Translations under genes and position numbers: made by a program | IMG/VR virus record: IMGVR_UViG_3300047316_000404 | Span: 1 to 54,000 of that record | Source of the DNA: a virus | Taxonomy: Duplodnaviria; Caudoviricetes | DNA: 54,000 bases | Reading direction: 5' to 3' (one strand) | The notes under the pieces: model-generated | The model's input: the letters and a program-made list of their open reading frames with translations, nothing else | Told to the model about the DNA's origin: nothing | The model's database searches: none | Shown here: positions 593-37,491 of the stretch, piece after piece | How the letters are laid out: the number at the start of each line of letters is the position of its first letter | How positions within the stretch are numbered: the first letter of the stretch is position 1

Positions 593-595
593 GGC

Positions 596-4505: not shown

Positions 4506-4547
4506 CGGACGTACTCCTCTCTGGTTGAACTTTTACCACGGAATTTG

Positions 4548-6863: not shown

Positions 6864-6900
6864 GCTACCCTACTGGCGGGAAATGTTATAGGGTGCGCGG

Positions 6901-7698: not shown

Positions 7699-7700
7699 CT

Positions 7701-8045: not shown

Positions 8046-8088
8046 CCTACACGGCGCCGCCGACGCTGGCGCGGTTATGCAGCATAGC

Positions 8089-9546: not shown

Positions 9547-9549
9547 GCC

Positions 9550-10317: not shown

Positions 10318-10399
10318 GTCTAGCGCGAGCGGATCACGTCCTTGTCGGCGCGCATGAAGGCGGCGGCCGGTCCGCCGGCCACCGGCAACGTGCCCTATA

Positions 10400-10920
10400 T
10401 CACTGGAGTAATCCATACCTCTCAGCCGGAACATCTCTTGATAGAAATCAGGCGGAAAGGTCGGCAACCACGGCCTGAGTTCTTTAGCTATGAAGGCCTC
10501 AAGAATACGCGCCAAAGCATCCCTTGCTCGATCGCGCTGAAAGCCTGTGGCCTCATCAACTAACGCGATGATGCCAAGCGTCGCAAATCCATGCTGAAGA
10601 AGCGCCGCTCGCTCTGCCAAGTGCTCCGATCTCTTGGTCAGAACACCCCGCCTGCCAGCTTCAATGAGAACGGCGCAAATATCGGGCAGGATTGTCGCTT
10701 CATAGCCGTCCGCCGGCCGGCCGCCATGCGCGGGAATAAATCGAATAGGCGAATTTGCGCGCTCGATTAAGCCTTTGACATTTATGCCCTTTTGTTCAAT
10801 CCCCTCCATCAAAATGGCAATTTTGCGCGCGCCGCCTCTTCCGCCGCCCTCAGACAGACCAAGGCCGCCCTGCAGACCTCGTTGGGAAAGAACCCGTGTT
10901 TCATCCTCTAGGACGTAAAC
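10400..10920 (-). pseudogene. P63C-domain protein fragment, truncated at both ends
   Basis: YVLEDETRVLSQRG...GYEATILPDIC...GIIALVDEATGFQ...FIAKELRPWLPTFPPDFYQEMFRLRG; flanks of the computed ORF do not look like protein. Confidence 0.75.
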
Positions 10921-11197
10921 GTCAGTTCGTCGGCATCGCAGGGGCCGGAACGGAACGGCTCCCCGCATTGACTATTAAGGGGTTGAGCGCATATGTAGCG
11001 CTTCTAAGCACCCCTCGGGAAACCGCCCGCTCGACGGATACGGGGAACCGAGTCTAACTACCCCGGGGACGCTCTTTTGCGTCCCCGAATCATTTTCGGG
11101 GAAGGGTGCTCTCATGACTGCTGCAGCAGCTTCTATTTCCGAGCCCGGCAACCGTCTCAGGGTTCGAATATTTGTTGATTTCAGGGGCGCGATCGGA

Positions 11198-11503
11198 TCA
11201 CTTTTGATCGTGCTGCGCTATAACGGAATTGGCAGACGGCGGCCCTAGCCGATCCTCCAGGCTCTTGATCCATTTCGCGTCATCGATGCAGGTTTGGCAG
11301 TGATCGAATGGGCAGCCGGCGAAGTGCCAAAGGCGGCGCAAATCGGCCCGCAGTTGCTCGATCTCGGCCTCGCGGTTGCCGATCAGCGCGTGCAACAGCG
11401 CGTTGGCCTTCAGCAGGTCATCGCGTTCGGCCGCCAAGCAGATTGGGCACATTCCATCTGCGACCGCTGCCTCAGATTCCCAATGTGCGTGCCTGCATGG
11501 CAT
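11198..11503 (-). CDS. Hypothetical protein (CxxC motifs, coiled-coil)
   Basis: CPIC and CQTC motifs; part of the leftward small-gene chain. Confidence 0.5.
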   Translation of the reverse strand: MPCRHAHWESEAAVADGMCPICLAAERDDLLKANALLHALIGNREAEIEQLRADLRRLWHFAGCPFDHCQTCIDDAKWIKSLEDRLGPPSANSVIAQHDQK

Positions 11504-11508
11504 TTGAT

Positions 11509-11766
11509 TCAACCCAAATGAACTCTGGCGCACGGCGCCCAGCACCGATCGACGATCTTTCCGGTCGGGTCGAGCAACCTAACTTCGCCCTGTCGTAAGT
11601 CGCGCTTGATCTTATCGAAGACGGGCCGGACTGACGCTTCGTCCGGTCCTACGGCGCGAACCTTGCGGGTATCAGAATAGCGCCCGCCGTGACGATCGAC
11701 GATCCATGGCCCGCCGCTAACGAGTTCAACTTCCGAGAGGTCGTCCTCGTATTTCATTTTGGTCAT
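11509..11766 (-). CDS. Hypothetical protein
   Basis: ATGA overlap with the upstream gene. Confidence 0.55.
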   Translation of the reverse strand: MTKMKYEDDLSEVELVSGGPWIVDRHGGRYSDTRKVRAVGPDEASVRPVFDKIKRDLRQGEVRLLDPTGKIVDRCWAPCARVHLG

Positions 11767-11978
11767 CCAAACAGTTTGACAATCGTGGCACCGAGCGCGA
11801 CGCCGGCCGCCAACAGCGCGGCGCCGGCGGTCATGCCGGCGAATGCGACTTGCCACGGCGCATGCCGCATTTCCTGATGTCGGCGATCGGATTCGGCAAA
11901 GTTGCGATGGATCTCCGTCAGCATCTTGTCGATGCGAACGGTTTGCTCGCGCGCGTCAATCGGATCGATGTCTGCCAT
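11763..11978 (-). CDS. Small protein with C-terminal transmembrane helix
   Basis: AGAGGA ribosome-binding site; hydrophobic C-terminus. Confidence 0.65.
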   Translation of the reverse strand: MADIDPIDAREQTVRIDKMLTEIHRNFAESDRRHQEMRHAPWQVAFAGMTAGAALLAAGVALGATIVKLFG

Positions 11979-11996
11979 TTGGTCCTCTTGGCGCTT

Positions 11997-12197
11997 TCAA
12001 GCAAACATCTTGAACAGGATTGCGCTTGTCATCGCCATGTTGGTGCCGACCATCCATTTCAAGACCGTCAGATCGGTTTCGATCTTGCCGGCCCGATTTT
12101 CATAGCCGGCGGCCTCTTCGGCAGCGGCGCGCGCGATCTCCTCCGGCACGTCGCCGGCCCGCAATGCAGCGTAGAGTTTTGCCATCATGACGGTCAT
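11997..12197 (-). CDS. Coiled-coil membrane-anchored protein (DUF1640/CCDC90-like)
   Basis: KLYAALRAGDVPEEIARAAAE...DLTVLKWMVG. Confidence 0.6.
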   Translation of the reverse strand: MTVMMAKLYAALRAGDVPEEIARAAAEEAAGYENRAGKIETDLTVLKWMVGTNMAMTSAILFKMFA

Positions 12198-12222
12198 TCG
12201 AGCTAGTGCTCCTTGGCGCTGC

Positions 12223-12516
12223 TCATTGGGCAATCCTGAATTGGTCCCAAGGATCGTTCCTGGGCGGGCAACCAATCCCCAGGAACGCGACCGTACACTT
12301 GGCCCGCCATGCCGCTTCGCGTTGCGCGGCGTTGTCCTTGACAAACTGGATTTGCGCCTCGAGGTTGGCAACGTGCTTGTCGTTGGCAGCGTTGACGAAT
12401 TCTATCTGCGCTTCCAGATTGGCGATTTGTTTCTGCTCGGCTGGCGTCAGATCGCCGGCATGGGCGGGTGCCAGCGTGCCGCACAGCACGGCGGTAATTA
12501 TTACAAGTCGTCGCAT
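12223..12516 (-). CDS. Secreted hypothetical protein
   Basis: Signal peptide ending AHA; internal duplication ANLEAQI(E/Q)FV; GAGGA ribosome-binding site. Confidence 0.65.
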   Translation of the reverse strand: MRRLVIITAVLCGTLAPAHAGDLTPAEQKQIANLEAQIEFVNAANDKHVANLEAQIQFVKDNAAQREAAWRAKCTVAFLGIGCPPRNDPWDQFRIAQ

Positions 12517-12749
12517 TGGATTGTCCTCGCTTGTTTGATGGGCGCCCGCCAAGGCCGCCCTGGTTCCGGTAATATTGCCCAGAGCGCCATATGGCGCAAG
12601 AGCGGCGGCCTCTGTTAATGTTTAATCATTCCGTCCGCCGGGCCGGCTGCTTCGGTCCTCGCGGCAGCCAAGGGACACCTGGGTGTCCCGGATGCCCGCG
12701 GAAGGATAGGGCCGGCCGGGACGCCAATCCCGCCGGCCCGCCCCGCCGT

Positions 12750-13064
12750 TTACCAGACTTGCCACCAATTTTTGTCGGATACGGGTGGCTTCAGGCAATC
12801 CGCTATCGATGGCTTGGCAACGCGCTCGACGTAATCGGCCGGAAGTTTTCCGTTTGCGATGAAATACGCGCCGTCCTCCATCGTGCTCCTGTTGGCGGCA
12901 GCGAGGACGTAACAACTGCAATAAGCGTTGTTGTTATTCATTCCCGCCAAACAAGTTGCCATTGCCTCCTTTATAAAGGCGAGCGTGTTCGCCTGGTCCA
13001 GCGGTGTCGCATGCGCCGCAACAGGCAACAATAACGTGCTCGCAAGCAATAATCGTTTCATCAT
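12750..13064 (-). CDS. Secreted Cys-containing hypothetical protein
   Basis: MKRLLLASTLLLPVAAHA signal peptide, YCSC motif, GAGGA ribosome-binding site. Confidence 0.7.
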   Translation of the reverse strand: MMKRLLLASTLLLPVAAHATPLDQANTLAFIKEAMATCLAGMNNNNAYCSCYVLAAANRSTMEDGAYFIANGKLPADYVERVAKPSIADCLKPPVSDKNWWQVW

Positions 13065-13112
13065 GGTCGTTTGTCCTCGCTTGTGTGCCGCGCCATGCGG
13101 CGAGTCGGAACT

Positions 13113-13167
13113 GGACTCATCAGGCGCCGCGTCACGGCGCGACGGGGGTTAGTTCCCCGTTTCATCC
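13113..13167 (-). ncRNA. Type II hammerhead ribozyme (HH1)
   Basis: Minus strand: ggau GAAA cgggg-aacuaac-ccccg UC gcgccg-ugacg-cggcgc CUGAUGA gucc; complete core, GUC triplet. Confidence 0.85.
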
Positions 13168-13343
13168 TTGTGGCTGCGGGCCTCCAGCCAGGCCCGCTCG
13201 AGTCGCGCGATCATGAGGGCGGCGCGCTGGCATAGGTCTGCGGTGGCGGAAGAGCGTCCCGGGTGCGCCTCGGTCAGCTCGCGCGAGATGGCCTCAACCT
13301 CGGCCTGCGTCGGCGGTGTGCTATGGTCGTCGTCTGGCGACAT
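13149..13343 (-). CDS. Hypothetical protein
   Basis: GAGGA ribosome-binding site; stop codon lies in the HH1 stem III loop. Confidence 0.55.
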   Translation of the reverse strand: MSPDDDHSTPPTQAEVEAISRELTEAHPGRSSATADLCQRAALMIARLERAWLEARSHKDETGN

Positions 13344-13488
13344 GGCGTCATTCCTCGTTGGTGGGTTGCTGGAACATTTCGACAATCAGATCAAGATTGG
13401 CCTGTAGCGCGTCATCGGAGAACAGGCCAATGTCGCCACTGTCCTCGCATTTTGGGCGCCCGCCAAGGCGCCGGGTTGGTGGTTATCT

Positions 13489-13547
13489 GGACTCGTCAGG
13501 GCCGGCGATACCGGCCGACCGGGCACAACAAGCGCCCGGTTTCGTCC
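13489..13547 (-). ncRNA. Type II hammerhead ribozyme (HH2)
   Basis: Minus strand: ggac GAAA ccgggcgc-uuguu-gugcccgg UC ggccgg-uaucg-ccggcc CUGACGA gucc. Confidence 0.9.
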
Positions 13548-14009
13548 TTATGCCGCCGATCGATTGCGATCTATCCCCCAGGGCGCGGTCTCGTAATCGG
13601 GAAGCCCATTAATCGCCCGCGACCGGATTGCCGCTATAATCCGGTGCGCGACCGTCTGCCGATAATCGTCGGTCTCGCAAGCCTGATAGTCGAAACAGTC
13701 GCAATTTTTGATGACCCAGACGCAGCGCTTCATGTGCCCCATATGGACGAATGGCTCAAAATACCGGAACGTATAGCCGCTCGCGTCCTCGCCGATCTTG
13801 CCCGGCATGTTGCCAGGGCCGCAATCCGGGTAACGATGGCAGACCGACCGTTCGTTCTCGGCCAATAGTACGCGGCCGATATCAGTCCAATCAAACAATT
13901 CAGCCTTACTCGGCTGAATGTAATAGCCGAACTGGTCTTTCATCCGTTTATCCTTAGCGAACGAAAGTAGCGCGTCGATATGGTCGTGGGAAACTACGAA
14001 AGCGGACAT
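13548..14009 (-). CDS. Hypothetical phage protein
   Basis: MSAFVVSHDHIDALL...IGRVLLAENERSV...CFDYQACE; ribosome-binding site present. Confidence 0.75.
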   Translation of the reverse strand: MSAFVVSHDHIDALLSFAKDKRMKDQFGYYIQPSKAELFDWTDIGRVLLAENERSVCHRYPDCGPGNMPGKIGEDASGYTFRYFEPFVHMGHMKRCVWVIKNCDCFDYQACETDDYRQTVAHRIIAAIRSRAINGLPDYETAPWGIDRNRSAA

Positions 14010-14094
14010 TTGCATTGTCCTCGCTATGTCGACTCTCGCCAAAGAGGCCGGCCTGATCGCCGATCATGGGCACCGAAATGCCCATGGGCTGCAA

Positions 14095-14301
14095 TCAGAT
14101 CGTCAGCTCTGGGTAATGCACTGTCCATGCATATGGAGACGCTGGCGAACAAGCTACTACATCCCATTGCGGAACAAGATCAGGATGCGCCTTGCAGAAT
14201 GCGCAGCTGCAGCCGCCTTCGATTGGTCTACGCAGATCACCAGGAAGTGGCATGAATAGCGTATCACCCCGTTTGGTTACTCTCGTGCCGTTGAAATGCA
14301 T
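14095..14301 (-). CDS. Small Cys-rich hypothetical protein
   Basis: GCSCAFC motif; GAGGA ribosome-binding site. Confidence 0.6.
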   Translation of the reverse strand: MHFNGTRVTKRGDTLFMPLPGDLRRPIEGGCSCAFCKAHPDLVPQWDVVACSPASPYAWTVHYPELTI

Positions 14302-14357
14302 TTGATCGTCCTCGCATGTTGTCGGACACTCGCCAAAGCGCCCGGTTCGTTGTGTCT

Positions 14358-14409
14358 GGTCTCATCAGTGACGGCATTACCGCCAGACGGGCAAAAGCCC
14401 GTTTCGACC
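14358..14409 (-). ncRNA. Type II hammerhead ribozyme (HH3)
   Basis: Minus strand: gguc GAAA cgggc-uuuu-gcccg UC uggcgg-uaaug-ccguca CUGAUGA gacc. Confidence 0.9.
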
Positions 14410-14595
14410 TTAACGCAGAACGTCATCAACAAATTTCGCCTTGCGAATATCATCCTCCTTGGCTATGCGCGCCGCCTCCAAAGCTTCTTTTTTGGTTTCA
14501 TATCCAACATAGGAAACTTCATAGCCTTCGCTATCAATTACCCACCAAAAGCCATCGCGCTTCATGGGAGCGTAGGTCTGATAAATGCGGGTCAT
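14410..14595 (-). CDS. Small hypothetical protein
   Basis: GAGGA ribosome-binding site; first gene after an AT-rich promoter-like tract. Confidence 0.6.
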   Translation of the reverse strand: MTRIYQTYAPMKRDGFWWVIDSEGYEVSYVGYETKKEALEAARIAKEDDIRKAKFVDDVLR

Positions 14596-15025
14596 TTGTT
14601 TGATCCTCGCTTTGCGCCCAAGCCATTCGGGCTTGCAATCAACAACCTATCAAACAAATACAAAAAGAAAACCGTAAAGAACCAGAAAGATCCACACAAA
14701 TCCGCACACGAGCGCGAAAGTTTGTTGCGTCCGCCATGTGCCATTTAGGAAACAAAGAGAGGGGGCTCTCGATTTGTGCCATGGCGCGCCCGAGCCGGGA
14801 AAAGGTCGCTCCATCTGGTAGTTTTAGTGCCATATGGTCTATTTAGTGCCATGATGGAGCGTTTCCAATCCGGCACACCCATCAGGATACCTTTAGGCCG
14901 GTGCGCACAGCACGCGTGAGGGCCGCGAGCGCCTAAGCCGCTGATATCATTACGTTGTGGTAGTGGGGTACGCTGGGATCGATGTTTGGAGCATAGTTCC
15001 AGACCATCTACGACCAGCGGCGAGG

Positions 15026-15355
15026 TCAATCTCCCCCGTCTTTAACGGGAGTTTTCCGGACGAATGCTCCAGGGGCGACTTCCTTGCCCCGAGCGCCGTG
15101 AAATGGATTTGTCCCCATCCTATACGGCCATAACGGGCAGTGGACAGCCGTGCAGCGCCGGACCTCGGATTGCTGGTAGCAGCAGCAGTCCAGACATTTC
15201 GCCCGGATAACCGCCATGATCGAGCGCTTTTGATGCGCTTGCCTTAGGACTTCGGGCGCCAGGTCGTCCGGATGCCGGCCTTCCGTCGAACCGTCCGGAT
15301 GCCGGACAATGAAGGATTCTGATAACGAATTCGGTGCAATATCGTCGATGGGCAT
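15026..15355 (-). CDS. Zn-binding hypothetical phage protein
   Basis: IRAKCLDCC...EVRRC...CPLWPYRMG motif; GAGG ribosome-binding site. Confidence 0.7.
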   Translation of the reverse strand: MPIDDIAPNSLSESFIVRHPDGSTEGRHPDDLAPEVLRQAHQKRSIMAVIRAKCLDCCCYQQSEVRRCTAVHCPLWPYRMGTNPFHGARGKEVAPGAFVRKTPVKDGGD

Positions 15356-15714
15356 GGTGGCCTCTTATCCAGGTTGCTGTGCCAAGTGGCCGGGCGGTGA
15401 CGCAATCACCGTCCGGCTGCGCCTATCGTAGCACAGCTCGCGCCCGCGAACATCCTCACACCCTCCCGCGTAATTTTGTTGCGTCAAGCTACAGTTCTCC
15501 GCGCACCTCGCCCCCATCCGCCCCCCCCGGTACGCCCCCCCCGGACCCCCCCGGTAGGCTGGCCAGGCCACCCCCATCGATCTTCTATATCAGTGCCCCC
15601 CGCATATCTGTCCGCTGTTTTCCCATTTCAACCGTTAGTATAGAATTCGGCTATGGTTCGCCTTGTTGGTTTTAGAACTTCGATTTTGGGTTTCCCTTAT
15701 ATAGGACTAGACCT

Positions 15715-15926
15715 TGTCCTGTCCCAATACCGCGCTCCCCTGCCGGGTATGGATTCCGGCGTGGGCGTTGGGACAAGAGTTGTCCCAGGCTTTTTTGTTG
15801 TCTGGGAATGGGTTGATTGATTTTGGGACAACTGGGACAAAAGCCATTGTCCCAGGCGTAAAAAAAGCGTAAAAAACCTGAAAAGTTTGCTTGGTATTGG
15901 GACACAACCTGTCCCAGATTGTGACA
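15715..15926. repeat. Cluster of TGTCCC/GGGACA iteron-like repeats, putative replication origin
   Basis: Eight exact copies in both orientations (15720, 15770, 15781, 15825, 15834, 15848, 15899, 15910) in an AT-richer non-coding tract downstream of the helicase. Confidence 0.7.
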
Positions 15927-16200
15927 GCCAGAATGGAGGTTGATTTTGGGGCTTTGGCGGGCTTGAGGCGAGGCGCCGAGCCAGCGGCGCTGCCGGGAGG
16001 GTAGGCACCTCCCGGCGCGATGAGCGGCCGTGCCGTGCCCGCCGAATGGGGAGAAACCGCGATGCTATGGATCGCGATTTCTATAGCCATCAGAAAGCAC
16101 CGCGCGAGGCTGGCTATCCGAGTGCGGTGGTTCTGATGTAAAGCCGGAGGGGCGGGCTGGACCCCACCCCTCCACCCCGAAATCTAGGGCGACCGGCCCT

Positions 16201-17619
16201 TTAGAACAAGTTCTTTTGGCCACCGGTATTCTGCTGCCGGTTGAAGCGGAGGACGGCCTGGCGGGCGGCGTCTTTGCCTTCGTCGGTGAGGTGCCACTTA
16301 TTACGGAGCTTGGTTGTTAATTTAGGCTTCTTCTTTTCGAGGTCATTGACGAGGCGTTCGACCTTTTTCCGGTAGGCTTCGCCGCTTTCGGAGACCCATC
16401 CGAGATCGCTTGCCCAGTTGGCGAATGATCCGCCGTGGTCGGCGGGCATGTTGAGCATGGCGGTGAGGACGCGGTCTTCGTCCTCCTCGGCCTTGTCGGA
16501 GTGCTGTTCTTCCTCGCGCTGGGAGATGGGGACGGCGCGCACGGTGGTGATTTGCCTACCTTTTTGGTCGACGAGGGCTGGGGATTTGATGGGCTCGAGC
16601 TTGAAGGACATGGCCTGGAAGCCGGGGCCGCGGATTTTGTTGTAGTGGAGCTCGACCACGTCGTCGGTGGTTCTGGCGAGGGTGAGGTTACCGTCCATTT
16701 CGGCGAGGTATGCGCCGCCGCCGCGTGGGAGTAGTTGGGAAGGGTCGGTGACGTATTTGATGGGGTGGCACAGCACGAGGACGCAGGGTTGGCCTGGCAA
16801 CGTCGTGAGCCTTCGCAGCGTGCGGGCGTAGGCGCCCATCTGGGTATTGCTGAGTTCCTCGTTGCCCAAAAAATACGCCGCGCTGGTATCGACGATGATG
16901 AGGCTGAATTCGCCCACGACCTTGCCGTCGGCCTCGATTGTGGGCCACATCTGCTCGATGTCGAAGACGCCGGGGAGGAAGTAGATGGTGTCCTTGTCGG
17001 GGTTGTCGTTTCGGAAGCTGTTGGCGCCGATGACGCGCATGCGGATATCGTCGGGGTTTTCGCCGACGAAGTAGAGGACGCGGCCTTTTTCGAGGCGGTG
17101 GGAACCGAACATGGCGTTGCGGTCGAGGCAGGCGACGCGCTCGGCGAGGTGGAGGGCGACGGCGGTCTTGGCGTGGCCGGTCTGGCCGGTCAGGGCGTAG
17201 ATGAAGCGGCGTTGGAGGATGCCTTCGACCAGGTAGTCGGGCGGGATGAAGCCCATGATGAATTCGGCCTGGCTGAGGACTTTGCGGGGCGCGGCCGCGG
17301 TCCTGGGGCCGGAGGGTTTGCCCTTGGCGGGGCCGTTGCTGCCTGGTGGGGGCGGCCGCTGGACCCCGGCGAAAGCGGCCGCGATGCGGGTCTGCAGGGC
17401 GTCCTCGCCCAGGTGGGCGACCAGGCCGTGGGCCTGCGCCATCTCGTAGAGGGCATCGATCGCCGTGGCCATGGGGAGGCCGCCCGCGACGTAGCCGGCG
17501 GCGTCCTTGGCAGCCTCGTCGAAGGCCTTGGCGCAGGCCTCGACGTCGCCCTCGCCCAGGCTGGCGAGCACCGCCCGCCAGTTCGCCAAACCTTCCCGGA
17601 AGCGATCGTCGATGGTCAT
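16201..17619 (-). CDS. AAA_25/RepA-family (SF4-like) replicative helicase
   Basis: PPDYLVEGIL, Walker A variant GQTGHAKT, Walker B LIIVDT, VLVLCHP, PRGGGA. Confidence 0.85.
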   Translation of the reverse strand: MTIDDRFREGLANWRAVLASLGEGDVEACAKAFDEAAKDAAGYVAGGLPMATAIDALYEMAQAHGLVAHLGEDALQTRIAAAFAGVQRPPPPGSNGPAKGKPSGPRTAAAPRKVLSQAEFIMGFIPPDYLVEGILQRRFIYALTGQTGHAKTAVALHLAERVACLDRNAMFGSHRLEKGRVLYFVGENPDDIRMRVIGANSFRNDNPDKDTIYFLPGVFDIEQMWPTIEADGKVVGEFSLIIVDTSAAYFLGNEELSNTQMGAYARTLRRLTTLPGQPCVLVLCHPIKYVTDPSQLLPRGGGAYLAEMDGNLTLARTTDDVVELHYNKIRGPGFQAMSFKLEPIKSPALVDQKGRQITTVRAVPISQREEEQHSDKAEEDEDRVLTAMLNMPADHGGSFANWASDLGWVSESGEAYRKKVERLVNDLEKKKPKLTTKLRNKWHLTDEGKDAARQAVLRFNRQQNTGGQKNLF

Positions 17620-21318: not shown

Positions 21319-21525
21319 TTATGACGATGCCGTCTGTGCAAGTCCAAAGAAGTCGTTTGGCGTTACGGCACCGTCGGTCACCTCGAAAATTTTCTCCATG
21401 GTGGCTTGATCAGGCATTCGATCACCGGAGCGATATCGGTGCACGGCTTGGCGCGACCGTTCGATCAGCGCGCCGAACTCAGCGTCTGAAAGGTTTCGCT
21501 CGCCCATGAATGCGGAAAGTCGCAT
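21319..21525 (-). CDS. cro: Cro-like repressor
   Basis: Short XRE HTH, AVHRYRSGDRMP...TDGAVTPNDF; divergent from cI. Confidence 0.85.
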   Translation of the reverse strand: MRLSAFMGERNLSDAEFGALIERSRQAVHRYRSGDRMPDQATMEKIFEVTDGAVTPNDFFGLAQTASS

Positions 21526-21536
21526 TCCAGATAATT

Positions 21537-21610
21537 GTCACCATTATGGTGACCCGTCAACCTCTCCGTCACCAAATTGGAGCCTTCACCGCCGTCGCCA
21601 ATACGGTGAC
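21537..21610. promoter_or_regulatory. Three 17-bp operators (OR-like) between cro and cI
   Basis: GTCACCATTATGGTGAC 21537, GTCACCAAATTGGAGCC 21568, GTCGCCAATACGGTGAC 21594; minus-strand TTGACG -35 at 21555-21560. Confidence 0.85.
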
Positions 21611-21619
21611 ATTATAAGG

Positions 21620-22219
21620 ATGGTGCAGATTTACCGAAATGGACTTGCGGCTGCGATGAAGCGGCTCGGCATTGGGCCTACTGCGCTGGCGGCGGAGGTC
21701 GGTACAACAAAGCAAAACATTGACCGATGGGCGCGGGGGGAGCGGAAACTCACCGTGCCTTGGGCCGAAAAGATAGCGCCGGTGCTCCAAACGACTGCGG
21801 GGGAACTGCTGCTTTCCGATGGCGGCGGAATCCAGCGCATTCCTCTACTCGATTGGATACAGGCTGGCAGGCTTACCAACACGAGGAGCCAACTCCCCAT
21901 GGAAGACGTACCGCTTTTGGCCTTTGCAGACTTGGGCCGCGGCGAGTTCTTTGCCTTGAGGGTTCACGGTGCCTCAATGGACCGAGTTTCACCGGACGGA
22001 TCGGTTATCGTCGTGGACAAATCAGACAAGACGCTGCTAGCCGGCAGGTTTTATGTTTTCGCCGTTCGCGGCGCGACGACCTATAAGCGATGGCAGGCCG
22101 GGAAGCCATCGTACCTAGCTGCATTTTCCACCGACCCCGCCGAGGGGCCTATTTTCATCGAAAAGCGCAAGGATTTTGAGGTGGTTGGGCGGGTGCGTCG
22201 GACCATGCTCGACCTATAG
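21620..22219 (+). CDS. cI: CI-like repressor (HTH plus S24 peptidase)
   Basis: N-terminal XRE HTH, IQAG cleavage site, FALRVHGASM (Ser) and TYKR (Lys). Confidence 0.9.
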   Translation: MVQIYRNGLAAAMKRLGIGPTALAAEVGTTKQNIDRWARGERKLTVPWAEKIAPVLQTTAGELLLSDGGGIQRIPLLDWIQAGRLTNTRSQLPMEDVPLLAFADLGRGEFFALRVHGASMDRVSPDGSVIVVDKSDKTLLAGRFYVFAVRGATTYKRWQAGKPSYLAAFSTDPAEGPIFIEKRKDFEVVGRVRRTMLDL

Positions 22220-22243
22220 CCTGGTTGCGGCATAGGAAAAATC

Positions 22244-22297
22244 GTCACCTTTTTGGTGACACGCCTATTGACCAGTCACCAAATTGGTGACAACACT
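22244..22297 (+). promoter_or_regulatory. Two 17-bp operators (OL-like) and a pL-like promoter
   Basis: GTCACCTTTTTGGTGAC 22244-22260 and GTCACCAAATTGGTGAC 22275-22291 flank TTGACC at 22268. Confidence 0.85.
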
Positions 22298-22322
22298 GCT
22301 CCCCACTACAACGGGGAGCCTG

Positions 22323-23282
22323 ATGAAACCGATTGAGCGCGTCGAGATCACCGACACCTACGATTGGTTGGCCGAGCGACAGCGCTACATCGGCGCCAGC
22401 GAAGTCGCCACCGTCTGCGGCGTCGCGGCTTACGGCTCGCTCGCCGAACTCTACGCCGAAAAGAAGGGCCTGCGCCCGCCGATGGTTGATAGCGGCGTGC
22501 TACGCCGCGGCCGCTGGGGAGAATCGGCTGCGTTCCAGGCGCTCGCCGACGAGCGGCCCGAATGGGACGTGCAGCGCGCCCGCGTCCACGTCATCGATCG
22601 CGAGGCGCGGATCGCCTGCACACCGGACGGCTTTGCGACCGCGCCCGATCGGGAAGGCTTCGGCCTCGTCCAGGCCAAGGTCGTGAGCCGCTCGGTCTAT
22701 CGTGCCAAATGGTTGGACGATCCCGAAGGGCCGTTCGACGGGCCGGCGATGCCGCCGGCGCACTTCCGACTGCAGACGGTCTGCGAGCGCATGCTCAACG
22801 CCGACCGCTGCCCGTGGGCCGTGCTCGCGGTGCTGGTAAACGGCGAATACGACTGGTCGTTTCGCCTATTCGACATCGAGCCTGACCCAATCCTCGAGGA
22901 TCGCATCCGCTACGACGTTGCCGCGTTCTGGCGCGACCATCTCGATCCCGGCGTGATGCCCGACTTCGAGCCGCAGCGCGACGAGGCGCTGATCAAGCAA
23001 CTCTTTCCGCAGGACGATGGCAGCGAGATCGATCTGACCACCGACAACCGCGCGCTCGTCGCGGTCGATGAGCTGACCGAGGCGCAGGCGGCCCTTAGTC
23101 GGCTGAAAAAGACCGAGACCGCACTCAAAACCGAACTGACCGCGAAGTTGGGCGCCGCGACCTACGGGCGCCTGGCCGATGGCCGCCGTTTGTCCTGGCG
23201 CCTGCAGCATCGCAAGGGCTACGCGGTTGAACCGGCCGACTTTCGCGTATTCCGAATTCTCAAGCAACAACAGGAGGCATGA
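22323..23282 (+). CDS. YqaJ-like viral recombinase/exonuclease
   Basis: WLAERQRYIGASEVA, LYAEKKG, RGRWGE, ACTPDG; GGGGAG ribosome-binding site. Confidence 0.88.
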   Translation: MKPIERVEITDTYDWLAERQRYIGASEVATVCGVAAYGSLAELYAEKKGLRPPMVDSGVLRRGRWGESAAFQALADERPEWDVQRARVHVIDREARIACTPDGFATAPDREGFGLVQAKVVSRSVYRAKWLDDPEGPFDGPAMPPAHFRLQTVCERMLNADRCPWAVLAVLVNGEYDWSFRLFDIEPDPILEDRIRYDVAAFWRDHLDPGVMPDFEPQRDEALIKQLFPQDDGSEIDLTTDNRALVAVDELTEAQAALSRLKKTETALKTELTAKLGAATYGRLADGRRLSWRLQHRKGYAVEPADFRVFRILKQQQEA

Positions 23283-23292
23283 AATGGTTTCC

Positions 23293-23352
23293 GGCATGGC
23301 ACGGCGCGGCATGGCGAGGCCGGGTGTGGTGAGGCACGGCACGGCGAGGCAG
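23293..23352 (+). repeat. GGY-NN pentamer array A (12 units), putative guide RNA
   Basis: NN = at ac gc at ga cg gt ga ac ac ga ag; ends GGCAGGGA. Confidence 0.9.
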
Positions 23353-23379
23353 GGATTTGTTTGATGGGTTTCCAGTTGC

Positions 23380-23484
23380 GGCGCGGCGGGGCATGGCCCG
23401 GCAAGGCCCGGCTCGGCGTGGCTCGGCGTGGCCGGGCACGGCCCGGCAAGGCGGGGCACGGCACGGCTGGGTAGGGCACGGCAG
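23380..23484 (+). repeat. GGY-NN pentamer array B (21 units), putative guide RNA
   Basis: NN = gc gg at cc aa cc tc gt tc gt cg ac cc aa gg ac ac tg ag ac ag; ends GGCAGGGA. Confidence 0.9.
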
Positions 23485-23507
23485 GGATTTGAACACAGGA
23501 GAGCTTT

Positions 23508-24134
23508 ATGTTGGACAAGCCGAAGTCGAAGAAAATAACCGACGAGCTAATACCATACAGCTCCACAACGATCAAAGCGGCGCGATTGCTGATCGTCGTG
23601 CGGGGGCGCACGCCGCTCTTGACCCACAATCCACAAAGCATGGGCACCGCCCCCGAGGCCGGACGCGGCTCGCGCATCCCGGAAGCCGAGGTCGAGGCCG
23701 AGGCCGGTTGCTACAGGATGGAAGATGGCTCGCTGGCCATCAAGGGCGAGGCATTCCGGGGCTCGATCCTGGGCGCCGCCGGAGCCTGGAAGGTCAAGCG
23801 GGCAACAATGAAATCACGGCTGTCCCACATCGTCGTAATTGAGGATCTGGTGCAGTTGGTCGATTCCAATGACGGCAAGCCGCTCACGTCCTACATCATC
23901 GACTCGCGCCGCGCGATCATCATGGGAAAGGGCATCGTCAGAAGGCGCCCGCGGTTCGACCGCTGGGGCGCGCAGTTCACCGTCGAATACGATCCGGTCT
24001 TGGTCGCCGAGCCAAAATTAATCGTCGATATTTGCGCCGATGCCGGTGGCCGGATTGGTGTTGGTGACTTCAGGCCAGCAAGAAATGGGTGGTTCGGTAG
24101 GTACGATATCGTGTCGTACTTGGTGCTTGAGTGA
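23508..24134 (+). CDS. Cas7/RAMP-like RNA-binding protein associated with the GGY-NN arrays
   Basis: RAMP-like layout: first strand VRGRTPLLTH, IKGEAFRGSI helix, RPRF..W...F strand, C-terminal Gly-rich loop AGGRIGVGDFRP..GWFGRY; AGGAG ribosome-binding site. Confidence 0.75.
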   Translation: MLDKPKSKKITDELIPYSSTTIKAARLLIVVRGRTPLLTHNPQSMGTAPEAGRGSRIPEAEVEAEAGCYRMEDGSLAIKGEAFRGSILGAAGAWKVKRATMKSRLSHIVVIEDLVQLVDSNDGKPLTSYIIDSRRAIIMGKGIVRRRPRFDRWGAQFTVEYDPVLVAEPKLIVDICADAGGRIGVGDFRPARNGWFGRYDIVSYLVLE

Positions 24135-24137
24135 TCT

Positions 24138-24212
24138 GGCGGGGCCAGGCCAGGCAGGGCCGGGCGGGGCGCGGCTAGGTACGGCGGGGCCGGGCGAGGC
24201 GCGGCAAGGCAG
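24138..24212 (+). repeat. GGY-NN pentamer array C (15 units)
   Basis: NN = gg ca ca ag cg gg gc ta ac gg cg ga gc aa ag; ends GGCAGGGA. Confidence 0.9.
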
Positions 24213-24251
24213 GGATTTGTTTGATGATTTTCCTTGATGAGTTTCAGTTCA

Positions 24252-24316
24252 GGCCGGGCAAGGCGGGGTCTGGCTTGGCACGGCGGGGCCCGGCGCGGCT
24301 GGGCGAGGCGAGGCAG
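24252..24316 (+). repeat. GGY-NN pentamer array D (13 units)
   Basis: NN = cg aa gg ct tt ac gg cc gc tg ga ga ag; ends GGCAGGGA. Confidence 0.9.
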
Positions 24317-24346
24317 GGATTATTCGCTTAATCGGAGGAGAATGAG

Positions 24347-25018
24347 ATGGCGAAAGTGGCGATCGACAAAATCAAAATTGATGAATCAATCTATCCGAGA
24401 ACCGGCGTCAATGAGTTTAACGTTGGCCGCTTGGTCTCGGCGCTCAAGACCGGCGTAAAACTGCCGCCGCTTCTAATCGAGGCCAAGACGCATCGACTTG
24501 TCGATGGCCGCCATCGGTTGCAAGCATTTCTGAAGTTAAAGATCGAGCGCATCGACGTTGTTGAAAAGGTGTATGCCAGCGAGGCCGACCTCTACGCCGA
24601 TGCCGTGCGCGCCAACATCGGTCACGGCGAACCGCTCGATCAGTTTTCAATCCGCTCAGCTATCATCCGGCTGGAACAATACGGCTACTCACGCGATCGT
24701 ATTTCAAATGTCGTGCGGCTGCCGGCTGAGATGATCGAAAAGATTGCACGCGGATTTGCAAGCGACGCCGATACCGGTAAGCCGGTCGCACTCAAGGGCG
24801 GGCTCAGTCATTTGGCCGGACAATCCCTGAGCAGCGAACAACAGCAGGTCAACCGGCACTATGGCGGGCCGAAGGCCGTGTTCTATCTGCGCCAACTTTG
24901 CGAAATGATCGAGAAAGATATGTGGCCACGCGACTCCGCGACATTTGTCTTTGAGATGGACCGGCTGGTCGGGTTGTGGTCGGCGATTAAGAGCAGCGGC
25001 AAGAGCGAAGCGGCATAA
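24347..25018 (+). CDS. ParB/Srx N-terminal domain protein
   Basis: IYPR...LPPLLI...LVDGRHRLQA...NIGHG; GGAGG ribosome-binding site. Confidence 0.85.
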   Translation: MAKVAIDKIKIDESIYPRTGVNEFNVGRLVSALKTGVKLPPLLIEAKTHRLVDGRHRLQAFLKLKIERIDVVEKVYASEADLYADAVRANIGHGEPLDQFSIRSAIIRLEQYGYSRDRISNVVRLPAEMIEKIARGFASDADTGKPVALKGGLSHLAGQSLSSEQQQVNRHYGGPKAVFYLRQLCEMIEKDMWPRDSATFVFEMDRLVGLWSAIKSSGKSEAA

Positions 25019-25023
25019 AATTA

Positions 25024-25093
25024 GGCGGGGCAAGGCAGGGCGTGGCGCGGCCAGGCGGGGTCGGGCATGGCACGGCCAGGCAAGGCAAGGCAG
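25024..25093 (+). repeat. GGY-NN pentamer array E (14 units)
   Basis: NN = gg aa ag gt gc ca gg cg at ac ca aa aa ag; ends GGCAGGGA. Confidence 0.9.
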
Positions 25094-25235
25094 GGAGACT
25101 GCGTTCAATGAAAAGCGGTCGCAACGCTACCGATGACTACTCGGGTCCGCTGCAATGCGACCGCCTCGCGCGCCCGGCCTGTTTTCGCCAGTGTTTGGGC
25201 CGGGCGCGCACTCTTAACCCAAAGGAGATTACCCA

Positions 25236-26351
25236 ATGACCAACCCCGACATCGAAGACCGCCGCGGCGCGCTTGCGCAATTCGCCAATGCCGGCGGCCA
25301 GCTCCAGCAGCCCATCCCGTCCGGCCACGGCTTGGTGAGGCCAACCACCGGGCTTGCCGATCGCGTCATCGGCGCGCAGCACGTCGCGGTCTACCGTGAC
25401 GACGCGAAAATATTGCAGAAGCTCTCCGCGCTCGCCGCGGCAGCCGGCACGGACTGGTTTTACCGCTTCCCGGTCAAGTCGAAGGACGGCCGCACCGATT
25501 ACATCGAAGGGCCGAGCATCAAGCTCGCAAACGATGTCGCGCGCATCTTCGGCAACAACGTCAACGAAGTCCGCGAGATCGACAACGGCGACAGTTGGAC
25601 CTTCTACGCGCGCTTCACCGACATCGAGACGGGCTTCTCGATGGAGCGCGCCTACCGGCAGCGCAAGTCGCAGACTTCGATCAAGACCAGGGACGCCGAT
25701 CGCAGTCTCGATCAGACCTACCAAATAGGGCAATCGAAGGCGATCCGAAATTGCATCGTCAACTCGCTTCAGATCTATGCCGACTACGCTTTCGAGCATG
25801 CCCGCAACTCGCTGGTCGATAAGATCGGCAAAGACTTGGCCGGCTACCGCCAGCGCGTCGTCGAGGGCCTCGCGCGCATCCCGGTCGAACTGAACCGCGT
25901 CGAGCGCGTCATCGGCCGTGCCGTCAAGGATTGGCTCGCGCCAGATGTTGCCCAGGTGATCGCGATGATGAAAAGCGTCGCGGACGGCATGGCGTCTGTC
26001 GAAGAAACGTTCCCGCCGATCGAGCAAGTTGCGCAGCCGGCTGCATCGACAGCAAGTGCTACGCCGCCGCCCATGGAGTCAGGACCGGAGGCGGCCGGCG
26101 AGGCGCAGGGCGAGGCCACACCCAATCCACCCCGCCCTGCGCCGACCGCCGATAAGCAATCAGCCGTCGAAGCCGGTGGCCCCGTCGAGGTCGCCTACAA
26201 GCGCGGCGCGGCCTGGCGCACGACTGGCGGGGAGCGCAAAGCCATGCCGCCCGAATACCGTGATCTGAAACATTCGCGCGAGGCGCTCGCATGGGGGGCC
26301 GGTTTTGACGGTAAGCCGATCCCGACATTTTCCGACGAGGGCGAAGCGTGA
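25236..26351 (+). CDS. Phage protein, possible single-strand annealing partner of YqaJ
   Basis: YRFPV...IEGPSIKLA...SKAIRNCI globular domain and a low-complexity tail; function inferred from position. Confidence 0.6.
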   Translation: MTNPDIEDRRGALAQFANAGGQLQQPIPSGHGLVRPTTGLADRVIGAQHVAVYRDDAKILQKLSALAAAAGTDWFYRFPVKSKDGRTDYIEGPSIKLANDVARIFGNNVNEVREIDNGDSWTFYARFTDIETGFSMERAYRQRKSQTSIKTRDADRSLDQTYQIGQSKAIRNCIVNSLQIYADYAFEHARNSLVDKIGKDLAGYRQRVVEGLARIPVELNRVERVIGRAVKDWLAPDVAQVIAMMKSVADGMASVEETFPPIEQVAQPAASTASATPPPMESGPEAAGEAQGEATPNPPRPAPTADKQSAVEAGGPVEVAYKRGAAWRTTGGERKAMPPEYRDLKHSREALAWGAGFDGKPIPTFSDEGEA

Positions 26352-32409: not shown

Positions 32410-35400
32410 CTATGGCGCTGCTGCCGCCTGATGCTCCGCGTTCCACTGTCTTTTGGTGGCGGCTGAAGCGTGTGGCAGATACCGCGGAATTTCGTCCGGA
32501 GCGGCTTGGTTCAGAATAGCCATCTGGTGCTGCTGCGGCAGCCGCTGGAACATGTACTGGTCGCCCGCTTCCTTCCCGATGGCGGCGACGGACTTCGGCT
32601 TCATCCCTGCCTTAATGGCTGCGGCCCTGGCGGCACTGAGTGCTTGCGGGTCCTTGTTCTGCTTGGCCAGCAATATCTGGTTACGGGCCACCTGCTGATC
32701 ATGCGTGGTGGCGTCGTCCTGATATGGCTTCGCCCCGGGGGAAACATAGTTCTGGTAGAGGTAGCCGATCCGGTTTTGGATCGCCGTCCTCGCGGCATAG
32801 GCTGGCGCCGGCCCAAACCCGAGATAGGCCAGCGGGGTCTCGATCGGGCGGCCGCCAGTTTCCTTGGCGTGCTCGGCGCCGGTTACCGACATCGGCGAGA
32901 GTTGCTGGCCGAACGTATGCCGAACCGCCTGGGCAATCTTTTGATATCCAGGAGCATTGGTGTCCCAGACCTCGCGGCCGAAATAGTCCCTGTTCTCCAC
33001 CAACTCTCTGATCGGCTGGAACAGCGTCTTGTTCCACAGCATGCTCATGGCGCCGCCCAGCATGCCGCCGGGGCCGCCGCCCTGCTCCTGGACGTGCTTC
33101 TGTAGCATCGGTATTTCGCGGAGATAGAACATCGTTGTGAGACGCCGCGGCGAGCCGTCCGGATTGAGACCGCCGACTCGCGGGAAAATATAGTCGTTCG
33201 TGTCCTGCGGATTTTCGCCGGTGAACATCTTGGTCATGATGCCGCCAATCATCGCGGCCGTGCCCATGTAGATGCTGGCGAATTTGATCTTGTTGGTCGC
33301 ATCGCGAATGATTTGCCGTTCTGCGCTGGGGGCCATGCCGGGTATGAATTTGCCGGCCGGGCGGGTAGCGGCCTCTATGGCCGCACCACCGAATTCGCGC
33401 GCAAAGCCCAGGTTCCAACCCAGTGACAACAACGAGCCGGTGCCAAGATCCTTGGTCATCTTGTTCCAGAACAGCCCGTTGTAAAACATCTCGCCATAGC
33501 GGTTGTCGGTGCTTTTGCCGAGCGCACGCAGCGCAATGCCGCGCGCCTCGTCGTTATTAACGAGGTCGGGCCTGCGCTTCATGAGTGCAGCGGCATCGTT
33601 GAGATATGACGCTATTTTCACCCGTGGTATCCACATATCGAAGATCGGCGCTTGAATGCGTCGGACCAGTTCCTGGGGCGCATAATAAGCCAGCTTGAAC
33701 GGATTTCCGGCCTGCCAGGCCTCGCTCAGCCTTTGCTCGGCGGCGCTGCGGAATTGCTCCGGCGCTCTCGGTATAACGCCGCCTTCCTCCATGTACTGGA
33801 CGGCGAGTTTGCCTTCGGGCGTGCGAGCATTCTCACCGAGAAGCCATTGGTTCTGGACTTCCTTGGCCGAGATCGGCTTTCCGCCCACCTCGGCCGCCGG
33901 GCGGAAAGTCGTCGTCACCGCCTGCTTTGCGCTCTTGATGGCGCCATTGATGTCTCCCGCAATCGCCTGGTCGGCGGCGCGCGCGAGGTTGCTGGACATA
34001 TTAATGTGAGCGACGTGGAGGGGGTGGAACGCGCTGACGGCGAGCTTGATCGGCACCCACGCAGACTTGAATTGCATCCAGCCGCGAAAGACGTCGCCGG
34101 CAACCCCTGGATTGCCCCATAGCCCTCTTTGCGCAACGACGTTGTTCCATATCGGCTGGATCTCGGGCGAGATCAGCCACTGCTCCCGATCAGGTGCATT
34201 GACCTTCTGCCAGCCTTGTTTGGCCAACGTGGCGGCCTGTGCGTCGTTCTTGACCTTGCCGGCCAACTGCATTTTCTCCAACCCGCCGAGCATTTCCATG
34301 GTCATGCGCATGTCGGCGCCGGCCAGAAGGCGAGAGCGGACGGCGGCATAGGGGTTGGTGTTCTTGAGCTTGTAGCCGCCGGCAAGTCCTTGCTCGATCA
34401 GATCGATGGTGCGTGCCTTCTGAAATCCGGTCTGGCCAAGCGTCTGGGTCAAATATTCCATGAGCGGCGGTTGACCCGGTCTCGGTGCCTCCCATTCGTG
34501 CGGGAAATAATCGTCTCGATAAGCCGCCTTTGAGCCCCACTGCTTTTCCAGCTTGTCGGTTTCATCAAGCATTCGCCTGATGTGCTGGGCATCCGCCTTC
34601 ACTTCCGGCTTTACAGTCCGGCCATTTTCGACGTCGGATAGAAAAGAAAAGCGATCCGCCTCGGGTATCTTGTTCCACCTCGCTTCGCCCTCCTGGGTTT
34701 CATGGAATATCCGATCATGCTCGCCCGATTGCGCCGATTTCATCTTGGCGAATACCGGCTCGGCCCGGAGCGCGTTTGAGCTGATGGTCTCCGGCTGGAA
34801 CGTCTCCTGCCAGGTGCGCAGGAGCTTGCTCAGGAACGGGAAGCGCGCAGGCGGGGTGGGTGCCGGGCGTTGCGTGGGTGGCGTGCCGCCGAGGGGCGGC
34901 GGGGCTCCGGTGGGCGGCGTTCCACCAGGCGGTTGCCGCGGCGGCTGTTGCCGTTGCTGCTGCTGCTGCTGCTGTTGCTGGCTACGCTCGATCGCATCCG
35001 CGCCTTGCTCGAGCTGTCGCGCGCGTCCTTCCTGGCCCTGCGCCCGGTACATGGCCGCAGTCTCGCGCAGGTGTGCGGCTGTGTTGGGGACGTCAGCAGC
35101 CGTGTTGACCCGTTGCTGCAGGAGCTCATTACGCCCGCCGGTAAACAGGTTTTCCTGCAGATGCGTGTCGCCGAACAGTCCTTCGTCCGCCGGCCGTTGC
35201 GGGGCTGTCGGTTTCAGACGTTGGTCGGCCTGCCGTTGCGCGAGCTCGGCTGCGCCGATGCGCTCGGCCCCTGGGATGACGCCTTGAGGTTTTCCCTCAG
35301 CGCCCATTTCGACAGTGCCGCGTGGTGCTTCGCCAGCATCTGGCGGCGCTGGAGGTCCTGCGGGCTCAGGTCCGGCCGCGGCTTCGCGTACACCTCGGCC

Positions 35401-37491
35401 ATCGCCGCGTGCTGCCGCGGCGTCATCAGCATCCCACCCTTCAATGTGTCCAACGGTGACGTGCTGGTCTTGGGTGTCTTTTTCATACTGGTTGGCATGC
35501 TCCATTAGGGCCCGCTCATAAGCCACATCTGGATCGGAAACGCCCTCCTTCTCCATGATCTCGACAGTACGATCATATATTTTAGGGTCTATCGCGCCAA
35601 GTCCGGCATCATGAGAAAAACCGTCAACGGCACGTTGGATTGCAACGCGGTTAAGCTCAGCCGCGCGCCCACGCTCGCCTGCGGTCGTCGTGCCTTCGCT
35701 GCCTACCCGATACTGTCTGGCTCCGCGGGCCTCTTTGTCGATCAAATCCAGCAGATCAGAGGTGGTCGTCTTGGCCACTCGGCCTTCGAAGTCGCTGGCG
35801 TCGTTGAGATATCTGCCTTCGCGTGTGGCCTTGAGCCACGCCTGATCGAGCGACATGCCGTTCTGACGCAGCAAGTTGCCAAATCCGGGGATCAGACGGT
35901 TTTCCCCCCCGAATATGTCCTTCAACTCCGGAATGTCTTTCTGTAGGCCGCCATTGTGCGCCAGATACTCGAGCAGGCTGTAGAGCTGCTCGTTCTTGGC
36001 GCGTGGCCCCCGCACGGCGGCTGGCGGCTGGACCGGCGGTGCAGGCTCTTGTGTCTCTACCGGTGCAGCCGGGCGCGCTGGCGGCTCGCCGGGCGCGGGC
36101 GCAAACTCTTCGTCGGCGGGTCGCGCCATCCCGGCACCCTTGGCGGCCCGGTTCATGCCCACCATCGCTTGACCGAGATTGGGGTGCTCACTGAGAACGT
36201 CGCCCCCGCGCTTGACCACCCAGCCGGGCTTGGCGTCGTCCTTCTCGATATAAATATCGCCTACCCGCCGGGACGCAGGGATGTTCGCGGGTACCGGCTG
36301 CGGTTGGGCGGCGGGAGGCGGTTCGGCTGGCGGCTCCTCCGGCCGCAGCGGACGTGCCTGCTCCTCGGCGTTGGGCACCCGCGGGAAGTCGCGGGTGACC
36401 GCTTCCTCCCAGGGCCCGGCCGGTGCGGCTTGCTGCTCAGGCGGTGCCTCAGGCTGCACCTTGGCGTCGATCGCCGCCTTGAGCGTGGGGTCCACACCCG
36501 GTTCTGCGGCAGCGGCAGGAGGCTCTTCGTCTACAGGCGCCTTGCCGTAGTCCTCCGCGCCGCCTCTGTCCCCAGCCGGAGCCGTGGTCTCGGGCGTGGC
36601 TGCGGCAGCGCCACCCTCTCCCGGCGTTCCGGCTGCGGGCGGCGGCTGCTCCTTGGCGGTGCCGGCCGCCGCGTCGGATCCCGGGCTGCCGTGTGGCGTG
36701 CCGCTGATCCGCGCTCCCAGCCTGGCGCCTGCCGCTTCGGCCGGGTTGAGGAAGGCACGCTGCTGTGGGAAGGCCGCGCCCACGCCCGCGCTCAACGCAA
36801 TCGCCGCAGGGTCGATCGGCTGGCCCTGACCGTATTCGGACCCTGCTTCGGTGATGCCCGCCAGACCCCCGGAGAACGCCCGCTGTCCAAGCGTTGCGAT
36901 CCTGGCGCCAGTGCCGAAGGGAACCACAGCCGGAAGCACGCTGCCTAATAGCGCCGATTTGGGGTTGGTCTGGGCGTTGGCGGTCCGCAGCAGATCGTCG
37001 TCGAGACCCAGCGCCTTGGCGCCTATGTCCTGCGCCTTGCCTGCCGCATAGCCGGCGATGCCGCCAGTCACGATACCGGCAGCTCCACCGATCAGCGTGC
37101 CACCAAGGGTGCCTAGACCAGGCAGTCCCAGGGTTCCCGCCGCTGCCCCATAACCGCCCATAGTGGCAGCGCCAGTCGCCGCGCCCGCAACCATGGGACC
37201 AACGCCGTGAGCGAACTCACGCAGCGCCGTCCAGAACGGACTCTCAGCCTTCGGTTGCTGTTGTTGATCCGGCTGTTGTTGCCTGGTGCGAAACGCCGCC
37301 CATTCGTCGCCAGCCGCGCGGGATGTCTGCGGCTGACGGAACGCTGCCCATTCGTCGGTCGGTCTGGAGGGCTGCGTCGCAGGCTGCGTGCGGAATGCAG
37401 ACCAGTCGTCTGCTCCGGCGTCCGCTACCTGTGACGGCTGTTCCGACTGAACGTCATCATCGGGTTCATCGTCGTCGTCATCTTCGGCCAT
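32410..37491 (-). CDS. Large internal virion/DNA-ejection protein
   Basis: 1693 aa, last of three coupled large genes; N-terminal D(D/E)WxAFR repeats, Gly/Ala hydrophobic segment, helical C-terminal region. Confidence 0.65.

Follow-up and report, generated by a model that had tools for sequence, protein, structure and literature searches.

The stretch of DNA analysed here (the window) comprises 54,000 nt of IMG/VR record IMGVR_UViG_3300047316_000404 (Caudoviricetes), to which all position numbers refer unless a locus name precedes them. Between the stop codon of an exonuclease gene and the next early gene, its plus strand carries a 1.85-kb cassette (23283..25111) made of five repeat arrays (A to E), a gene for a 208-amino-acid (aa) minimal RAMP (Cas7-like) protein and a gene for a ParB-like protein. 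Because a Vipr homologue stands between arrays of canonical GGY/NN units, the locus is assigned with great confidence to VIPR, an RNA-guided DNA-silencing system first described in 2026 (10.64898/2026.04.26.720920), and arrays B to E are, together with A, very probably the guide parts of five vrRNAs of this system, those of B, C and E being probably aimed at other mobile elements. The kind of system is already published; added here are three candidate target genes and one unusual self match.

With one mismatch at most, the pattern (GGCNN)4GGC is matched 55 times between 23293 and 25096, always on the plus strand, against 0.05 matches expected from shuffles, and the pentamer arrays B to E which an earlier note had read from the raw letters are therefore genuine. 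An in-register parse resolves five arrays of 12 to 21 units each, directly before and after the 208-aa gene and on its strand, with a few GGT in place of GGC and with GGCAG-GGA closing every array. Array A (pentamers 23293-23357) belongs to vrRNA A (23293..23379), which has 11 guide units (23293-23347), the conserved AG unit and a 3' stretch starting GGATTTGTTTGATG; array B (pentamers 23380-23487, 21 GGYNN units and then GGA) belongs to vrRNA B (23380..23507), which has 20 guide units and the AG unit and ends 20 nt before the start of the 208-aa gene. Downstream of that gene follow vrRNA C (24138..24251; pentamers 24138-24217), with 14 guide units, the AG unit and its 3' stretch, vrRNA D (24252..24346; pentamers 24252-24321), with 12 guide units and the AG unit and an end directly before the ParB-like gene, and vrRNA E (25024..25111; pentamers 25024-25098), with 13 guide units and the AG unit. 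The dinucleotide strings given by the earlier note for B, C, D and E were letter-perfect, only the conserved final AG unit having been omitted. Beyond GGCAG-GGA, about 15 further bases are common to the 3' stretches of A and C. No Rfam family was obtained at gathering score, and no site was found by a sigma-70-like promoter scan of 22100-25400.

The 208-aa gene (23508..24134, plus strand) lies between arrays B and C. A profile built on 39 homologues of its product matches PDB 36pp_D, 'SUSP1 Vipr protein', over profile positions 26-203 (E 1.1e-18), and the single sequence reaches the same chain with phmmer (E 2.5e-4). For its AlphaFold2 model (pLDDT 89.4, pTM 0.82) the top Foldseek matches are Csm3/Cas7 chains of type III-A complexes, 8do6_E (E 3.4e-6, TM 0.53) and 6ifn_F, the Csm3 structural matches overall lying at TM 0.5 with E of 3e-6 to 1e-4. 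Since the profile matches PDB 36pp and the model has the Cas7/Csm3 fold, the 208-aa gene is a Vipr homologue, hereafter vipr. The protein also matches phrog_4652, and the Pfam family search was blank. Homologues at E of at most 1e-3 number 112 among 285 candidates, nearly all of them metagenome proteins; a Felixounavirus homologue was found by tblastn (E 3e-5, about 22% identity), and GGTNN arrays flank it in phage adrianh. Among species genomes, 199 pattern stretches gave 0 confirmed Vipr. The second gene of the cassette (24347..25018, plus strand), between vrRNAs D and E, is a candidate accessory (vap) gene; its 223-aa product matches phrog_1033, 'ParB-like partition protein' (E 2e-10), with no Pfam match and no PDB sequence match.

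According to the available text of the first report (10.64898/2026.04.26.720920), VIPR consists of a phage-encoded minimal RAMP protein, Vipr, and of vrRNAs built from GGY/NN repeats and a 3' tail, the NN dinucleotides of which pair with double-stranded DNA, one target base in three, usually a codon wobble base, being skipped. The features by which VIPR is recognised further include tandem arrays of at least four GGY/NN units in the intergenic DNA around vipr and on its strand, an invariable 3' tail, which in the SUSP1 clade is structured and has a pseudoknot, an accessory vap gene adjacent to vipr, and vrRNAs of about 100 nt that co-purify with Vipr. Recognition is described there as occurring on either strand without a protospacer-adjacent motif (PAM) and as shutting off transcription in competing phages and satellites; evidence for the '1 nt skip rule' came from an E. 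coli genome search, in vitro binding and GFP repression, the match cut-off was 80%, and no self match of at least 80% is reported in the sets tested by the authors. As far as the available text of a cryo-EM companion goes (10.64898/2026.04.26.720927), each GGY is clamped by Vipr protomers and the NN are exposed, and further papers, again as available in part, deal with a phage-satellite contest involving VIPR (2026.10.15.759431) and with 99 VIPR-like clusters in metagenomes (2026.10.21.760802). The noncontiguous code which the earlier note derived from raw sequence alone, with variable dinucleotides spelling the target as NN-skip-NN, is the same as this 1-nt skip rule.

The association of the arrays with Vipr extends to other phages. 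In IMG/VR, the pattern (GGCNN)6GGCAGGGA retrieved 87 stretches (L001-L087) holding 388 arrays of at least six units, and a Vipr-profile match is present in 60 of these 87 loci; in 30 of 30 tblastn matches vipr shares its strand with the closest array, the median distance being 34.5 bp. The 27 stretches with no Vipr-profile match in their DNA may be cut loci or 'solo' vrRNAs, as in the available text of the third VIPR paper (2026.10.15.759431). When 231 arrays were tested with different skips, matches of at least 80% numbered 50 with a skip of one base compared to 24, 30 and 36 with skips of 0, 2 and 3, and the seven top-ranked matches all had a skip of one base, so that the 1-nt skip rule holds in this clade. 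The arrays of foreign loci gave nothing against the window, 1 of 179 reaching 80% compared to 0 of 179 permuted arrays, and a metagenome scan returned a single distant locus.

Comparison with sibling phages indicates that the cassette is an insertion into the early operon of a podovirus-like phage from soil/rhizosphere, the otherwise syntenic siblings being without it. Their exonuclease is 86-91% identical to that of the window and synteny is kept on both sides of the cassette, L090 9975-10942 aligning to window 22297-23264 and L090 10964-12157 to window 25112-26329; the exonuclease stop is joined directly to the homologue of window 25112 and the cassette has no counterpart. Arrays of at least five units were found in 0 of the 5 sibling loci L090-L094, and arrays are absent from four of the five whole sibling records, the fifth being G005. 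Contigs with the VIPR-less junction are present in soil/rhizosphere runs X11, X14 and X19, and the same runs hold parts of the cassette; in some runs, other parts of it have no contig cover.

Search of both strands of the window with the gapped NNx patterns confirmed that B to E have no full match in it, as the earlier note had found by eye. The best scores were 23/40 for B, 18/28 for C, 15/24 for D and 17/26 for E, and they were reached by 187, 197, 200 and 149 respectively of 200 unit-permuted guides, thus all within the permuted-guide background; masking of the arrays did not change this result. The short match of the last six B units at 6808-6824, which had been considered as possibly due to chance, is indeed chance: its 12/12 bases drop to 18/42 for the whole of B in the same register, and 37 of 100 permuted guide sets match the window perfectly over six units at least once. 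Outside the window, exact gapped scans of IMG/VR with B units 1-10, B units 11-20, all of A and D units 3-11 gave 0 matches, as did exact scans of the 185,579 species genomes with a spaced 11-unit B pattern, with D units 2-11 and with an array plus its GGCAGGGATTTG end; a 3-mismatch pattern search with B in five sibling records and with D in five further records gave 0 matches as well. Since the exact scans were blank, mismatch-tolerant scans were run on fetched relatives, 1.88 Mb in total.

In these relatives, one site is matched by guide C at 21/28 in each of the five whole sibling records. It lies close to the C-terminal end of a 352-aa phrog_13678 gene and is read in frame, the skipped base being the wobble base; this gene immediately precedes the major head gene, where a scaffold gene is usually found. 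Over 31 alleles the score is 23/28 in L154 (L154:2959, 82%), 22/28 in L149, 21/28 in 20 and at most 19 in 9; the score of 23 was reached by 2 of 200 permuted guides in the 1.88-Mb set. The conserved C-terminal motif of this scaffold-position gene, of which a truncated copy is carried by a 17-kb element, is the likely target of C.

L154 belongs to this 17-kb element, a 17,075-bp record with direct terminal repeats (L161, G006, 1-17075), whose genes include a serine recombinase, a 76-aa gene, the 192-aa truncated phrog_13678 homologue and a primase-helicase, and further a methyltransferase, an HNH endonuclease, a replication initiator and a repressor, with no virion gene among the open reading frames (ORFs) scanned. 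From this gene content the record would be a satellite-like element and a candidate phage satellite. Units 1-8 of guide B match it perfectly (16/16) at L154:2098, in frame in the 76-aa ORF with the skip on the wobble position, the whole guide scoring 26/40 there, and a perfect run of eight units was reached by 2 of 100 permuted guides. When B was compared with 55 representatives of the 76-aa family, P0168 was found to fit 15 of 20 codons (permuted maximum 9, 0/100 reaching 15), and the held-out units 9-20 in fixed register fit 7 of 12 (permuted maximum 6, 0/1000 reaching 7). It is therefore reasonable to regard as the probable target of B the 76-aa gene, which ends about 250 bp upstream of the truncated phrog_13678 copy; on this element, about 860 bp separate the B site from the C site, both being on the same strand. 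In the representative library, two long proteins, P0141 (877 aa) and P0167 (1223 aa), also contain the domain of the 76-aa protein, in 7-8 copies.

For guide E, 20/26 was obtained in L090-L092 within a 330-bp insert absent from the window, the site being in frame in a 109-aa ORF (L090:12173-12502) with the skip on the wobble position. Among 18 further loci with the 109-aa gene, seven (L099-L104 and L112) match at the same site with 21/26 (81%), and this site covers invariant or most conserved residues of the family. None of 200 permuted guides attained this score in the 396-kb set of siblings, and 2 of 200 did in the 1.88-Mb set, which points rather well to a conserved site in this early gene of the VIPR-less siblings, absent from the phage of the window, as the target of E.

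The earlier note's prediction of targets in related phages, above shuffled background, is thus borne out for C and E, and for B by its fit to the 76-aa family, and not for D, whose best score in the fetched set (17/24) was reached by 200 of 200 permuted guides. Under a skip of one base, and above skips of 0, 2 and 3, an NN match of at least 80% is attained by C (23/28), E (21/26) and A (19/22), and this level is missed at DNA level by B (26-27/40) and D (17/24). Homologues of the three target genes (109-aa, phrog_13678 and 76-aa) were searched in the window and none was found. Three of the four guides, B, C and E, therefore have candidate targets in genes of rival phages and of a satellite-like element, suggesting that they are aimed at other mobile elements and not at this phage.

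Several observations weigh against this interpretation. For none of the guides was a perfect or nearly perfect target obtained, the best matches (81-86%) lying just above the published 80% cut and all matches together spanning 65-86%; exact searches with 9-11 guide units were blank in both IMG/VR and the species genomes, and D has no match above background in any of the sets searched. The whole-guide DNA score of B is within background, its best overall value of 27/40, obtained in the array-bearing loci, being reached by 30 of 200 permuted guides (1.88 Mb), so that the case for B consists of the run of its first eight units and of the protein-level fit, the codon fit of P0168 having been judged from the protein sequence, Ser and Arg codon families included. 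The sets giving the best scores of C and E were fetched after a weaker first match, and many alleles amount to repeated tries, an advantage given equally to the permuted guides. The head module apparently mimicked by the 17-kb element is also absent from the phage of the window, and this element may therefore parasitise the siblings and not this phage. As for the vrRNAs themselves, GGCAGGGA is the only part common to the 3' stretches, and these fold no better than shuffles (z -0.6 to +1.3 over the five arrays).

The best-surviving alternative, considered unlikely, is consequently a genuine VIPR locus for which the matches of B, C and E (65-82%, none perfect) are chance or fall on distant cousins of the real targets, these being located in elements outside the searched collections. 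The blank exact searches, the permuted guides equalling the scores of C and E (2/200) and the total of B (30/200), and the enlargement of the allele sets after the first match are all compatible with it. On the other hand, the three sites each follow the reading frame with the wobble base skipped, they cover the most conserved residues of genes absent from the window, those of B and C are neighbours on the same strand of one 17-kb record, and the held-out units of B still track the 76-aa family (0/1000 permuted), which is why targets in other mobile elements are preferred.

Far less probable is that the arrays are DNA-level repeats without any RNA guidance, either binding sites of a ParB-like protein or microhomology linkers for the exchange of phage modules. 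A ParB-like gene does lie inside the cassette, the arrays are placed at gene boundaries of a mosaic early region, and metagenome contigs break and rejoin at them. However, such breaks at repeats are an assembly effect, a ParB-like homologue is present in only 9 of the 87 array-bearing loci compared to 60 for Vipr, and the arrays are all on the transcribed strand, in 55 of 55 matches here and in 30 of 30 beside vipr elsewhere. The least probable is that the arrays are coding sequences of small pentapeptide-repeat proteins rich in Gly, Ala and Arg (G-x-A-R-x), each translated from an ATG within the 3' stretch before it (e.g. 23365, 24224) with AGGGA as ribosome-binding site, for although ATG-started open frames do cross arrays A, B and D and GGCNN arrays are nearly stop-free in any frame, GGY is kept at every unit whatever the codon phase and the constraint is thus on nucleotides, the unit numbers of the 388 arrays have no preference for multiples of three, the arrays adjoin a Vipr homologue and their dinucleotides fit foreign genes better at a skip of one base than at other skips. 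Early ideas of sites for a TRAP-like ring protein, G-quadruplexes, Chi-like or Rho-related repeats and recombination linkers were dropped after the literature was consulted.

By homology to the SUSP1 and P. fulva systems, for which this mechanism is shown, Vipr protomers would polymerise along each vrRNA of the cassette, clamping every GGY and exposing the NN, which would then pair with double-stranded DNA with every third target base skipped, and the bound filament would silence transcription. Because no promoter-like site was found inside the cassette, the early-operon transcript is the probable source from which the vrRNAs are cut. None of the 22 runs listed was an RNA run, which speaks neither for nor against such transcription.

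Compared to the Type II VIPR of Escherichia phage SUSP1 (PDB 36pp), the locus is likewise phage-borne, with a homologous Vipr, same-strand GGY/NN arrays before and after vipr and an adjoining candidate accessory gene; guides fit coding DNA in frame with the wobble base skipped, as in the available text of the SUSP1 paper, and a satellite-like element is among the candidate targets. The two differ in their units, GGC here and mostly GGT in SUSP1, and apparently in the 3' end, where no structured tail of about 40 nt with a pseudoknot is evident here and only GGCAGGGA is common to the stretches. Array B, with 20-21 units, exceeds the 9-16 repeats reported for SUSP1-type vrRNAs in the available text, and the candidate accessory gene is ParB-like, a term with 0 occurrences in the main text of 10.64898/2026.04.26.720920. 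The clade of P. fulva prophages has in common with this locus the setting of a temperate phage, a CI-like repressor gene (21506-22219; Pfam, PHROG) being located upstream of the exonuclease gene here, and, as far as the published text is available, guides toward genes of related phages, early-region genes included; its targets are described there as mostly lysis-lysogeny regulators, whereas the candidates here are the exonuclease start, the 109-aa early gene, the scaffold-position gene and the 76-aa gene.

With Cas7/Csm3 of Class 1 CRISPR-Cas, Vipr would share, judging from the model and from homology, a protein filament on the guide RNA and a thumb interrupting the pairing periodically, the guide being however read as two bases in five against two in three of the target, and not as five in six. 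No further Cas7-like gene was found beside vipr among the scanned neighbours, which by Pfam and PHROG scans are the exonuclease, the ParB-like gene and phrog_3657, and no array with 25-40-nt repeats was found in the window by Tandem Repeats Finder; a CRISPR-Cas locus was rejected.

The locus is a well-delimited natural example of VIPR outside enterobacteria and Pseudomonas. The presence of the cassette in one soil phage, its absence from near-identical siblings of the same samples and the fit of the guides to genes which only the siblings and the satellite-like element carry are together what would be expected of a weapon in the competition between phages. Natural matches of 81-86% raise the question of the mismatch tolerance of the filament, and the cassette also raises those of the role of its ParB-like accessory protein and of a regulatory role for a self match at the operon start.

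This self match is that of guide A, which fits 19/22 (86%) the first 11 codons of the YqaJ/RecE-like exonuclease gene of the same phage (22323..22354, plus strand), in frame from the ATG. The gene (22323-23282; PF09588 and phrog_434) is the first one after an operator-like region, and enrichment near start codons, proposed in the earlier note as a test, was observed for array A only and not for B to E. The score was reached by 0 of 200 permuted guides in the window, by 1 of 200 in a second scan and by 2 of 200 in the 1.88-Mb set; against the exonuclease start of siblings L090-L092, A scores 18/22. The N-terminus of the exonuclease is variable among siblings, and the code of A reads like a further allele of it. 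Either the three mismatches protect the phage from A, or A regulates its own operon. It could be speculated, with considerable doubt, that a filament of Vipr and vrRNA A sits on the start of its own early operon, of which the exonuclease gene is the first and the cassette a part, and acts there as an autoregulator guided by RNA, or else as an immunity factor of repressor type that would also shut the operon of superinfecting siblings. If so, this would be a self-directed use of VIPR, in contrast to the sets tested in the first report, for which the available text has no self match of at least 80%.

Three further observations concern the arrays and the start of the operon. In run X18, array B is missing from one contig of a close variant (15 differences over 635 vipr bases), in which the end of array A runs directly into the leader of vipr (window 23356-23492); with only 24 letters on the short side of the joint, this is a weak hint of a different guide repertoire between close variants. 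The whole sibling record G005, that of L103, holds at 34204-36690 twelve arrays, many of them back to back, in a layout unlike that of the window; where they overlap, consecutive arrays share one G, which closes GGCAG in the first and opens the second, and such overlapping arrays are termed 'staggered' in the available text of bioRxiv 10.64898/2026.04.26.720920. Finally, two GTCACC...GGTGAC inverted repeats are located at 22240-22300, between the CI-like repressor gene and the exonuclease start, and look like operators of an early promoter; one of them was listed as a minus-strand hairpin resembling a terminator.

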